Positions 54,001 through 64,000 of a stretch of DNA of 64,000 bases are shown here, piece by piece (position 1 is the stretch's first letter; every line of letters starts with the position of its first letter). The position numbers are program-made. Source of the stretch: a virus; IMG/VR virus record IMGVR_UViG_3300045988_184269. One strand, 5' to 3'.

Positions 54001-57000
54001 ATGAGACGTGGAGCAATATGCTGGACAGCTACAATATCTATCACGGTAACACCATCGGTATTGTCATTCGTAATGGCGAGAACGTCTATATAGGCTGGAC
54101 TGACCCTGAGGAAGTTCATGTAACGGACGATTTCATCATGGATGTGAACCCCAAGGATTTCCGTGTGAATACGGAATATATCGGTCAGGAGGATGAGCAC
54201 CAGCGCAAACAGCGTGTGAAGGAAGAGCGTACACAGGCCCGCAGCATGGTCGTGGAGATGGTATCCCGCATCTTTCTGTTCAATATTCTGCAGGGCGTGG
54301 TGGATAGCTCCAACATCCTTTCTCTTCCGGCTGGCGTCAAAATCTCCAAATCCTCCGAGTATGTCGTGTTTTCCATGGCTGACCGCTGGTTGACCGACAA
54401 CCGATACGGCAGCTTTGTAGACATCGTGGAGCGATGCAACAAGCCTGATGCAAAGAAGGGTGATAGTATCTTGACCGTCCTTTCTTTGACTCCGGAGAGA
54501 GAATACAGGTATAGGCCTTACTGGAATGACCGTGGCAGGGGAGACCGCAACCGCACCCACGACTGTTCCGTTTCTGACTGCGCCATCTATCCCATCAATC
54601 TGGTGGAGTATGATGCACCGGAGCAGCGTACCTATTATCTCTTTAATGGCATTCGCTATGCCACATATGGCGATGGCAGTAATCTCGGCGACGACGCCGA
54701 AATCATTGAAACTGTCATGGAGACTAAGCCGCATTTCTTCGTGTCTGTGGAGAAGGGCGAGTCCATAAATCGCCGTTGGTATGATGACGAGGGCAAGAAA
54801 CGCGCCCGTTCCAATTTTGAGGTATTCCGCGACGAATACATCAATCTCGCTTTTATGAACTCCGAGTGGCTGACTTACGCCATCAATACCAAGAACCTCG
54901 GTGGATGGATTATCGGAGGTAAGTGCGTGGATTACGCCTATGGTATCAAGTACCTGAACGTGGCTCTGCAGCACATCCGCCAGCGCGAGGCATCCGAAAA
55001 AGAGCACATCGACCATGCTTGCCCCGGCTTTACGGCGGAGCACCCCTCTTGGATGGTAGACCTGTCCGAGTGGAAGCTCGCCGAGGATGTCCATAGTCTC
55101 CATTCCCGCAACGTATCGAAATTCTTGAGCTGGTTCACCCAGAAGGAGGTATCCTAAATGGAAGCTGCAACTACCGTAACCTCACGGCTGACATACAAGC
55201 ATTGCGCCAAATGCTTCAATCGCATCGTTCTTCACGCATTTTCTGAAAGCCATTGTCTCGAATGCGGCAAGTTCATTATCTGTTCCAACACACCTGCAGA
55301 CACACTTTGCCCTGAGTGTGCCATCAAATTGAACCGCTGCATCCATTGCGGCGTTGAATTGGATAAGGAGGATTAAATTATGAGCAATGTCGTCATCATC
55401 AAGCACCCCAAATGCCCGCAGACCTTCCTGTTCTCCGTCCCTGACGGTTGTGCGCTCCATACCGGAGATTTCGTGACAGTGGACACAAAGAAGGGTAAGA
55501 CCGTTGGCATCTGTGCCTCGGACAGCTTCTCCGTTCCTGAGAGTGCTTTGAAGCACATCGTTGCTGCTTTTGGCGGTTCTGAGCCTCTGCGTACAGTTGT
55601 CGGTATATTGGATGAGCGTCCGCTGGTCAGCGCTGTTGAGGAGGCATCTTAATGGCCGCCGGCAAGCAGCGTGCAGGCGCAGACCGCCGCTACATCGTCT
55701 TCTGTACTGCCTGTGGACAGGTAGCTCCGCTGACCGACAAGGTGGATGTGGACGGGCACCTCATGTATGACTGGCACCGCCCTTGTCCTCGCTGCGGCAA
55801 GGAGGAGTGGGCGACGCGATTTATCGACCCCGTCGGCGCCACAACCAAAAAATAAGCAAAGGCGGCTCTGCATCTGGTAGGGCCGCTTTTCCACTTCTTC
55901 CACACAGTTTTCCACAACATATTGTGTTCCCGCTGGTTCTCACCACAATATGCCATATATTTTCATTTCCCGCACACCTCTGCAATTTACAAACACCGAA
56001 AGCTAAGTGCAAACTATAGTTTGCAAATCAATTAGTTAAATCCAGTTGCGACTTTGCGTATTTGCGTATTTTGGTCGCAAGTTAGTTGCAACTTGAAAGT
56101 AACATAACAAAAAAAGCACCTCTCTTTCGAGAGGTGCTTTCAGTTTAGAATTTCAGTTGGTCTTCAGTTATTTTTGCGATTTGCGGCAGCTTGCGAGCTT
56201 CTTCGGTACGAAGCTGGAACATATCCAACTCATAATTACCGAGCCGCACGCGGTCAAGACCATCGGCGTCTTTGAAAATATCAAAGAGGGTTTTGACGCG
56301 CAGTGCATCTTGCTTATCCAACCAATGTTTCTCGATGAACTCATAGCCTTCCTTATCGGGACGGCAGTGATACTCCATCAGAAACAGTGTGATGGGGTCC
56401 GTATCAGGATATGCTTCCTGCAGCATCCTTGCACTCTCGCCACCGTGGGTATTATCCTCGGAATCGCTACGTCTGCCTGTGTCGTGATACAGTGCAGCCT
56501 CAATCAGAATTTCCTTGTCTTCCAAGTCCAGACCCTTCATATATGCCAGCAGCATACACATGAACAGGACACGGCCAGCATGAGCCTTTCCGTGTAGTTT
56601 GCTTGCCATTTGGAACGGAACGGCATCATAGTCGGCAGTCCTCTGATAGAGCCAGAAGTCATCTATCGCGCCGTCATCCACGGCCTCATTGAGCCAGTCG
56701 ATACCATAGAGGGGAAAGTCTTCAACCTCCTTGATGTCATCAGGAGATACGATAATTTCAGCCTCCACGCCTTCGAAATACTCAATGACAGAGGCTTTTT
56801 CGACTGTAGCCCGAAATACCTTCGCATTGTCAGACGGGAAGCGTGTGGCGAAGAACACGGCCACGGCAGGGTCCAGCGTCCAAGAGAATGCCTCCTCCAG
56901 ACTTGCGCTTTCATCGCCGGCGCCACGGTAGACCGTCAGGGTGTCGGGATACTTCTTGAGCCCCTTCTCCGTTGCCTGAATCTGTTCCGGTGTTTTCATG

Positions 57001-63000: not shown

Positions 63001-64000
63001 TGCTGTTGGCGGCCATTGTGCCACCGATGATGGTAGGTGTGCCGACAATGATGGTGCCGTTGAAAGCGCCGTTGTTGACCTTCTGCCGCGTCAACGTATC
63101 CATGTTCCCGTTCTGGACGTTCAGCGGGACTTTGCCCGTCTCACAGCCATAGTAGAACATATCACTGAAGATATACAGATAGTTGAAGGCGGTAGATGCT
63201 TCCACCATGTGAGCGCCCCAATCAGCGGGGTACTTGGCGCACAGGGCGAGAATCTCGTCACGGACGGTCTTGAGTTCCGAGTTGTCATCCACGACAGCCA
63301 ACTCCGGTGCCTCGTAGTAGAGGGACAGGACTTGGGGTGTCATTGCCAGCATAGCGCCGCTGAGGTCGATGTCGTCAGACTCAGAACCGATAGACGGAGT
63401 ACCCGCCCACTGGCCGGAAGGCATCGTCACGGCGGCACCCAGTTTACCGACAGAAGGCGCATTGGTCTGGAACACCGTCTTATAAGTGAACAGCAGCGTC
63501 TTCACGGTCGTGCCGGTAGAGTTGTCGCGGAACTCAGCACTCCACAGATTGTCAGAGACCTGCAGCAGAGCATAGTCCTCAACAAAGCCGGGGATACCCA
63601 GATATGCCAGAAATGCTCTGGTTGCATAGGCGTGCAGCGTAGATTGCCCCTTCATAGACGGTCTCTGCGGCGCATTCCACTTGGAGAACGTCGTCGTGCT
63701 GCGGTTAGGCATTTGGTTCAGCCCGAAGGGGAGGGTACTGATGTCGAACCCTTTCTTACTTCTGAAGAGTACACAATTTGCCATGGTCTTTTTCTCCTTT
63801 CTCCCAGCCTGTAATAAGGACTTACGGGAATCCAAAAAATGTTATATATAGAAAAAGACAGTCACTTCCCAGAAAAGGGAAGTAACTGTCTTGATTCTTT
63901 GTGGTGACTTGAAAACGGAGATAATCTCCTTTATAAAAATAGCTTCGTAATTATAATTCTATACTACCACAGTTTGATATTTTGTCAATTCCTTTTGGCG

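Follow-up and report, generated by a model that had tools for sequence, protein, structure and literature searches.

We analysed a 64,000-nt stretch of the virus record IMGVR_UViG_3300045988_184269 in IMG/VR (the whole stretch is called the window below), which carries a tightly packed run of seven minus-strand genes at 56145-63784. In order of transcription these encode an AAA+ ATPase (gene 1), a DUF3232 protein (gene 2), a VWA-domain protein (gene 3), a Zn-ribbon protein (gene 4), a Fic protein (gene 5), a Cys-rich protein of 69 aa (gene 6, Cys69) and a protein that joins an N-terminal domain to a predicted ADP-ribosyltransferase (ART) domain and an HD domain (gene 7, ART-HD). A preliminary description, made from the sequence alone, had treated the seven genes as one cargo system; they are very probably not one system. 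We favor, with a probability of roughly 0.6, a composite reading in which a conserved MoxR-type chaperone/protease core is joined to variable host-manipulating cargo and expressed as part of an attenuation-type plasmid regulon.

Much of the preliminary description held. Its gene layout agrees with our translated open reading frames (ORFs) and with public gene calls, and the promoter, the leader terminator and the strong 3' terminator that it placed around the operon were all recovered in a consensus scan. Most of its domain calls stand as well, except that the "~300-aa unknown domain" of gene 7 is predicted to comprise an N-domain and an ART domain, and that an HExxH motif in the VWA protein had been missed. 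The assignment of the ATPase and VWA genes to the MoxR/CobS-CobT type, the setting in a conjugative element and the conflict- or establishment-like character of the downstream genes are likewise supported.

Several ingredients of the operon are of known kinds: MoxR-VWA pairs borne by mobile elements, Fic proteins and Lar-like proteins. What is new here is the site of cargo exchange, the regulon of leaders and, above all, the N-domain-ART-HD family. The seven genes do not merit an entry of their own among defence or anti-defence systems, which removes a false lead; what the window holds is a conserved MoxR-VWA operon whose 3' end serves for cargo exchange, in plasmid-like elements that are very common in the human gut.

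Only the ATPase-VWA pair is conserved across loci

A profile-guided scan for the ATPase in one genome per species returned 25 loci (comparison loci are numbered L001 and upward), in 22 of which the contig continues past the ATPase gene. At every one of these 22 informative loci a VWA homologue follows the ATPase directly on the same strand, and the space between the two genes is taken up by N-terminal extensions of the VWA reading frames. Genes 2, 4, 6 and 7 are next to the pair at none of the 22, and Fic occurs at a single locus, at a distance of six ORFs (~3.5 kb) downstream. A DUF4116-repeat protein follows the VWA gene at 10 genome loci. At many loci the pair has housekeeping genes of the chromosome as neighbours, among them a gal operon (GalT, GalK and melibiase), transporters of the MFS and MATE types, patatin, an FAD oxidase, molybdopterin oxidoreductases, a 2-hydroxyacid dehydrogenase, an aminotransferase, a subtilase, a serpin and RecD2. 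Three loci (L008, L011 and L012) are related elements that have backbone genes in common with the window. By these sequence comparisons the pair is ancient and at home both on related mobile elements and in ordinary chromosomal neighbourhoods.

The closer relatives differ in which of the remaining genes they carry. The locus with an ATPase identical to that of the window (L033, 100%; region 96% identical at the DNA level) carries all seven genes. Two others with ATPases 85-86% identical (L031 and L034) read ATPase-DUF3232-VWA-Zn ribbon-Cys69-HD and lack Fic. The most divergent, L029 (ATPase 67% identical), has ATPase-DUF3232-VWA followed by an opposite-strand HEPN/MNT pair and then by the same convergent neighbours as the window (p725, p132 and EndoNS), with genes 4-7 absent. 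The L029 pair, at L029:4829-5544, consists of a HEPN protein and an MNT (NTP_transf_2) protein of the toxin-antitoxin type and occupies the site of genes 4-7. The 3' end of the MoxR-VWA operon is a cargo swap site.

DUF3232 lies between the ATPase and VWA genes in L029-L034 only, a close plasmid lineage, and its absence from all 22 genome loci led us to reject it as a general third component of the pair. At the other end of the operon, ART-HD was recovered at 80 metagenome loci, of which ~75 are distant; the other six genes are all missing from the 8 kb around it there. Because the synteny test fails, we take the seven-gene set to be a mosaic particular to this lineage, in which a conserved pair is combined with a lineage-specific DUF3232 insert and exchangeable 3' cargo. 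Synteny of all seven genes is not conserved across elements, and the ATPase-VWA pair, which alone is conserved, is found outside mobile contexts as well; these are largely the outcomes that the preliminary description had itself named as speaking against a seven-gene system. The hidden Markov model search that it had proposed, run on the seven proteins with PADLOC, matched Fic and none of the other six, and an NCBIfam scan of the seven gave no family-level match.

The ATPase-VWA core

Gene 1 has an N-terminal region of ~300 aa of no recognised kind, followed by an AAA+ domain of the MoxR/AAA_5 class. Pfam AAA_5 falls just short on the single protein (19.7 bits against a cutoff of 22), and a profile of the ATPase family searched against the PDB matched midasin (5.7e-8) and CbbQ (2.7e-5). 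The motifs are a Walker A GKS(T) at aa 337-340, QExSR at 452-456 and RR at 512-513, and across the family GKS(T), E450/E453 and R512/R513 are invariant. There are 114 homologues, all from Clostridia where the source names an organism. Gene 3 opens with a region bearing an HExxH motif (H100, E101, H104), continues through a low-complexity linker rich in Q and G and ends in a VWA domain (VWA 2.2e-10, CobT_C 3.7e-12, with matches to the "CobT" families phrog_1576 and phrog_17276). The metal ion-dependent adhesion site (MIDAS) DxSxS (D568, S570, S572) is kept in 23 of 23 homologues and the HExxH in 22 of the 23; the N-terminal region is, by this motif, putatively Zn-metallopeptidase-like. The DUF3232 protein encoded between the two also matches PDB 2RDC (6e-8), an uncharacterised structure.

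By their motifs and profile matches the two genes are a MoxR-type AAA+/VWA chaperone pair. They share with CbbQ/CbbO, NorQ/NorD, RavA/ViaA and CobS/CobT the placing of an AAA_5/midasin/CbbQ-like ATPase beside a MIDAS-bearing VWA protein, and differ in the N-terminal extension of the ATPase (~300 aa), in a Walker B that reads QE rather than DE, and in the interposed DUF3232 gene. With the MoxR and peptidase-vWA pair of group 2.2 jumbo phages, for which an assembly role has been proposed (PMC7824862), they share the N-terminal HExxH metallopeptidase motif of the vWA protein. MoxR and VWA genes are also known on the backbones of pCAR1, R478, Rts1, SXT and R391 (PMC2642839); these proteobacterial plasmid MoxR ATPases have no detectable tblastn similarity to the window ATPase, and a tblastn search of plasmids with that ATPase found one fused E. 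faecium protein only, so no direct homology with the MoxR proteins of pCAR1 and SXT emerged. Plasmids and phages often carry CobT-like VWA domains.

Two specific identities for the pair were rejected. Aerobic cobaltochelatase CobS/CobT is excluded by a TIGR01651 score of 21 bits against a cutoff of 759, and no CobN or cobalamin genes were seen among the proteins of the window and related loci that were scanned, which are a part of the ORFs. A MoxR-vWA-beta-propeller ternary system does not fit either: there is no bpMoxR (PF20030) or PADLOC match, the genes after the VWA gene vary (a DUF4116 protein, others or none), and neither a beta-propeller nor another effector protein was seen, though no search was aimed at them (for the ternary systems see PMC7159879). 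In Eubacterium oxidoreducens, L021:1056-4003 encodes a second, different pair, a MoxR protein (AAA_5/bpMoxR-like) and a DUF2201 protein of metallopeptidase plus VWA-like make-up, 6-9 kb from an ATPase-VWA-DUF4116 trio in the same chromosome region. The fused protein of the E. faecium plasmid NZ_CP019972.1 (L111, 95790-98018), a 742-aa "AAA family ATPase", is a natural fusion whose N-terminal part matches the window ATPase domain and whose C-terminal part matches the window VWA domain.

Gene 7 belongs to a large family of predicted ART-HD enzymes

Gene 7 consists of an N-domain (~aa 1-160), an ART domain (~160-265) and an HD domain (~300-454). In an alignment of 32 homologues, invariant YRG, SW(T/S) and ExE motifs precede the HD motifs; in the window protein the corresponding ART residues are R195, S209, E249 and E251 (nt 56715-57032), of the R-S-ExE type, and the HD residues are H306, H310, H342-D343, H355, H381, D385 and D414 (nt 56148-56612). 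Sequence searches of Pfam, NCBIfam, PADLOC and the PDB did not recognise the ART domain. Pfam gave noise only for this region in the 22 family members scanned and a PDB profile search gave a marginal TreX match (E = 1.7), so that structure prediction of the isolated domain was needed. The AlphaFold2 model of the whole protein has a predicted local distance difference test (pLDDT) score of 93.5 and that of the isolated middle domain a score of 88.7, and the fold matches of the latter are ART-fold proteins almost without exception: a cyanophage ejected protein, KptA/Tpt1, PARPs, TreX (23% identity), TreTu, diphtheria and pertussis toxins and AcrF11. Taken with the motifs, the modelled fold identifies the middle domain as a probable R-S-E ADP-ribosyltransferase. 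The C-terminus, with its H...HD...D ligands and HD fold, is that of an HD metal-dependent phosphohydrolase.

An exhaustive profile search found at least 711 clusters of the ART-HD family at 50% identity (E <= 1e-30), and the best 150 of these are almost all full length (445-500 aa). Both catalytic sets are 97-100% conserved in 180 members whose median identity to the window protein is 29%. Database labels for the family are "HD domain-containing protein" or hypothetical only; the present analysis gives it a domain assignment, as a large and uniform group of unannotated enzymes with both active sites conserved, and with a chemistry hypothesis that can be tested. Its loci often lie among transposases and other mobile genes. 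No partner gene is conserved across the distant loci, which disfavours a toxin requiring immunity, and Cys69 was rejected as a conserved antitoxin or partner, since ~50-75 distant loci have no coupled upstream small ORF; a Cys69-type ORF precedes ART-HD in the close relatives L031, L033 and L034 only. ART-only relatives occur in phages and directly after ssb on 136-145-kb B. subtilis plasmids, pointing to offensive use by mobile elements, and the BFVD held no full-length viral ART-HD.

Among the modifying domains that phages and conjugative elements use in their effectors, ARTs are the most frequent (PMC5512222, PMC9503650). From other R-S-E ART effectors of mobile elements and toxin systems (T4 Alt/ModA/ModB, polyvalent-protein ARTs, Rhs TreX/TreTu) the ART of gene 7 differs in being fused to an HD domain and an N-domain at a uniform ~455 aa and in having no conserved immunity or antitoxin neighbour. 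The Legionella SidE effectors also unite a mono-ADP-ribosyltransferase and a phosphodiesterase (PDE) in one polypeptide, but their domain order is the reverse of that in gene 7. The HD part of gene 7 is not of the SidE PDE type: its canonical metal ligands are intact, and its matches to generic HD proteins are no weaker than those to SidE PDE domains. We regard as speculative, and on balance improbable, the proposal that ART-HD, with its family, is a two-step enzyme in which the ART ADP-ribosylates a host or rival macromolecule and a binuclear HD phosphodiesterase then cleaves the ADP-ribose pyrophosphate to leave a phosphoribosyl mark or cross-link. If true, that mark would resist macrodomain and ARH hydrolases, and SidE-like chemistry would have arisen independently in Firmicutes mobile elements.

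A homologue of a 505-aa protein encoded elsewhere in the window (38836-40353, plus strand, in a low-GC (0.37) patch; no Pfam match) lies directly downstream of ART-HD on the same strand in ~20 other elements (L037-L069, L085 and L107), and a flotillin gene is often near this pair.

Fic is a single-gene insertion

By blastn against L031 and L034, the Fic-bearing segment (Table 1) is cleanly inserted between a promoter-like site, which these relatives share, and the ribosome-binding site of Cys69. The comparison points to a recent insertion of a single gene into a plasmid operon. Read from the translation, the protein has the active site HPFRDGNGRMSR and an N-terminal inhibitory motif S-N-A-I-E-G, and by these motifs gene 5 is a class II (auto-inhibited) Fic/DOC AMPylase; its C-terminal region is winged-helix-like by eye. 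It matches Pfam Fic (5.7e-16) and the PADLOC model SoFic PDLC03963 (4.1e-36, 123 bits, model positions 55-348 of 361). With SoFic, a single-gene defence candidate in PADLOC, it has in common the HPFx(D/E)GNGRxxR active site and the (S/T)xxxE(G/N) inhibitory motif, but it is not an equivalog, scoring 36.4 bits on the NCBIfam SoFic equivalog against a cutoff of 550. "Fic family proteins" of ~40% identity are present on 205 plasmids of many phyla.

The two small cargo proteins gave fainter signals. Gene 4 is CxxC-rich and scores 18.3 bits on Lar_restr_allev (cutoff 28.6) and 5.9e-6 on part of the Lar-like profile phrog_599, so that it may be called weakly Lar-like (restriction alleviation); it is present in L031, L033 and L034 and absent in L029. 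Gene 6 has four cysteines (C18, C29, C34 and C43), and Pfam, PADLOC, NCBIfam and PHROG scans gave no match for it.

A promoter-leader-terminator cassette heads several operons

The "conserved element promoter" of the preliminary description is real. Promoter and leader are repeated at window 10458-10508 (minus strand, 90% identity), where they head an operon running into the primase, and just outside the window at L001:1384-1523, where the promoter and ~90 nt of leader (L001:1384-1474) are 99% identical and head a 12-gene operon. The whole cassette spans ~150 nt, and no fewer than three operons of the element begin with it. In every copy a terminator hairpin of its own, with a T run, precedes a conserved ribosome-binding site. 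The hairpin sequences differ and their pairing is kept, 4 of 11 pairs being changed on both sides among six paralogous and orthologous leaders, and the leader folds better than all 200 shuffles (z = -4.4). We infer that the cassettes form a small regulon gated by the leader terminator, which would offer a handle on the timing of gene expression in Gram-positive gut plasmids. The promoter hexamer pattern alone had no repeat in the window within 3 mismatches, the cassette being found by looser blastn. No Rfam family reached the gathering threshold or the E-value threshold on the leader, LPR10 and rliE being far below their gathering scores, and Pfam was uninformative on the 12 genes of the L001 operon, which encode small proteins, except for DUF4314.

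The establishment regulons of pLS20 and p576 likewise place several operons of variable and mostly uncharacterised genes behind the same conserved regulatory sequence, with a strong promoter within the p576 sequence and a block to read-through in that of pLS20 (EGeRS1/EGeRS2; PMC8708921). The likeness lies in one regulatory cassette before at least three operons; the window cassette differs from the EGeRS elements in having no sequence similarity to them, in its host clade and in its shortness.

Interpretation of the operon and alternatives

In the composite reading the ATPase ring would remodel a client captured by the VWA/MIDAS domain, as suggested by known MoxR-VWA pairs, and the HExxH peptidase region may cleave that client. 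The cargo would consist of independent effectors acting on host or rival targets, namely a Lar-like anti-restriction protein, an auto-inhibited AMPylase and ART-HD, in which the ART would modify a target and the HD domain would either trim that ADP-ribose mark or destroy a signalling nucleotide. The leader terminator would make expression of the operon conditional, by attenuation or antitermination within the plasmid regulon, and expression would probably be early and transient after transfer, by analogy with Bacillus plasmid establishment regulons.

Several points weigh against this reading. Every activity assigned to the operon proteins is inferred from motifs and folds, and the hairpin and promoter inside the operon are consensus-level predictions only. 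The relaxase, oriT and leading region were not located in the element, and an establishment role is for that reason an analogy only. The SoFic match of Fic and the HEPN/MNT pair in L029 fit plasmid defence or addiction equally with counter-defence. Core and cargo, being co-transcribed, could still be functionally tied to each other in this lineage, and the reading gives no part to the first ~300 aa of the ATPase or to the N-domain of ART-HD.

A plasmid-borne defence or addiction island, with Fic and ART-HD as abortive-infection or toxin effectors that guard the host or stabilise the plasmid against phages and competing elements, and with the MoxR-VWA-peptidase module as sensor or activator in the manner of NTP-dependent conflict systems, seems to us unlikely, if the strongest of the alternatives. 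It would account for the PADLOC match of Fic (SoFic, 4e-36), for the HEPN/MNT pair at the equivalent site in L029 and for the spread of ART-HD as a stand-alone gene amid mobile genes, in the manner of single-gene defence systems, and MoxR-vWA modules are known in conflict systems (PMC7159879). Against this, PADLOC is silent on the six non-Fic proteins, Fic is at 36 bits where the NCBIfam SoFic cutoff is 550, the ATPase lacks a Pfam bpMoxR match, the ATPase-VWA pair sits in housekeeping contexts with no effector partner, and ART-only relatives are found in phages and beside a plasmid ssb. That all seven genes make one integrated system, in which the ATPase/VWA pair loads, activates or regulates Fic and ART-HD while the small Zn and Cys proteins serve as adaptors or inhibitors, is hardly credible. 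The tight packing in a single orientation, the one strong promoter and one strong terminator and the overlap of Cys69 with the start of ART-HD are what such a system would show, but synteny fails at every level, Fic is a recent single-gene insertion, ART-HD stands without the other six genes at ~75 loci, and a promoter-like site and a hairpin lie between the modules.

It is also possible, though rather improbable, that the core helps to assemble or mature the adhesins of the element, its VWA tip-pilin-like protein or its type IV secretion system, with the cargo as unrelated passengers; this concerns the core alone and is compatible with the composite reading. For an archaeal virus and for jumbo phages, in the latter with a peptidase fused to the vWA protein, MoxR-vWA pairs have been proposed to help in assembling virions or tails (PMC7824862). 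Large adhesins and a VWA protein resembling a pilin are encoded by the element, and in related elements the pair is close to backbone genes such as the primase. The pair is, however, common at chromosomal loci that have no transfer or adhesin genes nearby, and nothing links it specifically to adhesins.

Features of the operon

The coordinates are collected in Table 1. From gene 1 to gene 7 the intergenic gaps are 79, 22, 54, 75 and 35 nt, and genes 6 and 7 overlap by 14 nt. The hairpin in the gap between the VWA and Zn-ribbon genes marks the core/cargo boundary; on the minus strand it would be at best a weak or partial terminator, because only TTT follows it. The internal promoter-like site lies directly upstream of the Cys69/ART-HD pair in the Fic-less relatives.

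Table 1. Coordinates of operon features in the window; gene lengths are those of public gene calls on identical contigs.
Feature	Coordinates	Strand	Basis
Sigma-70-type promoter, TTGACA-16-(TG)TAGTAT	63961-63988	-	10/12 hexamer positions plus TG (extended -10)
Leader intrinsic-terminator hairpin, 16 bp and T run	63855-63892	-	~70 nt upstream of ATPase start codon
Gene 1, AAA+ ATPase, 625 aa	61907-63784	-	AAA_5 weak; family profile
Gene 2, DUF3232, 140 aa	61405-61827	-	PF11554, 2.4e-16
Gene 3, HExxH and VWA/MIDAS, 742 aa	59154-61382	-	VWA, CobT_C; motif conservation
GC-rich 12-bp hairpin in 54-nt VWA/Zn-ribbon gap	59118-59145		Hairpin scan
Gene 4, Cys-rich Zn ribbon, 78 aa	58863-59099	-	Sub-threshold Lar-like
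Internal promoter-like site, TTGATT-17-TATAAT	58812-58840	-	Consensus scan
Fic-bearing insertion, 1,076 bp	57723-58798	-	Indel relative to L031, L034
Gene 5, Fic, 348 aa	57741-58787	-	Pfam Fic; PADLOC SoFic
Gene 6, Cys69, 69 aa	57496-57705	-	Family-less
Gene 7, N-domain, predicted ART and HD, 454 aa	56145-57509	-	HD at threshold; alignment and predicted fold
Operon-end intrinsic terminator, 13-bp stem and T run	56112-56141	-	Consensus scan

Three small plus-strand genes (55158-55855) converge on the operon terminator and encode a 72-aa double Zn ribbon, a 90-aa protein weakly like the PriA 3'-DNA-binding domain and a 67-aa Zn ribbon. Two of the three are missing in L031, so the downstream side of the junction is variable as well.

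The element and its other genes

The window is part of contigs of 115-195 kb that recur in human-gut metagenomes, and the exact operon proteins are present on hundreds of contigs. The element encodes ParA, ParB, a RepL/HTH_36 protein, a CHC2/DUF3854 primase and a topoisomerase, together with a CHAP and lysozyme protein, a flotillin and an NS-type endonuclease. Its sequence marks it as a conjugative, plasmid-like element of Gram-positive bacteria, namely of gut Clostridia. A megablast search of PLSDB plasmids and INPHARED (GenBank) phages found no match to the 8-kb region.

Two giant surface proteins of 3,808 and 1,876 aa are encoded on the plus strand at 18628-30054 and 31836-37466. In both, a thioester domain is joined to many SpaA repeats and to as many as 18 T-Q ester-bond domains. 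The gene at 13010-15934 encodes a protein like a VWA tip pilin. The giant thioester adhesins and the VWA pilin-like protein are probably mating adhesins.

A perfect palindrome, AAAGTGTGCAAT(C/G)ATTGCACACTTT, occurs in seven intergenic copies of ~45 nt each (window 8204, 12691, 12940, 15933, 16299, 18439 and 52363), some of them upstream of parA/parB, adhesin and VWA-pilin genes, and looks like a candidate operator for a plasmid-wide repressor. Three of the copies are adjoined by an 87-nt repeat, 71-85% identical (12729-12815, 15972-16058 and 52114-52200), which may represent a leader common to these sites or else a small RNA. The last of these repeats is directly preceded by a tRNA-Ser(TGA) gene on the plus strand (52026-52113; Rfam 62 bits, and ARAGORN).

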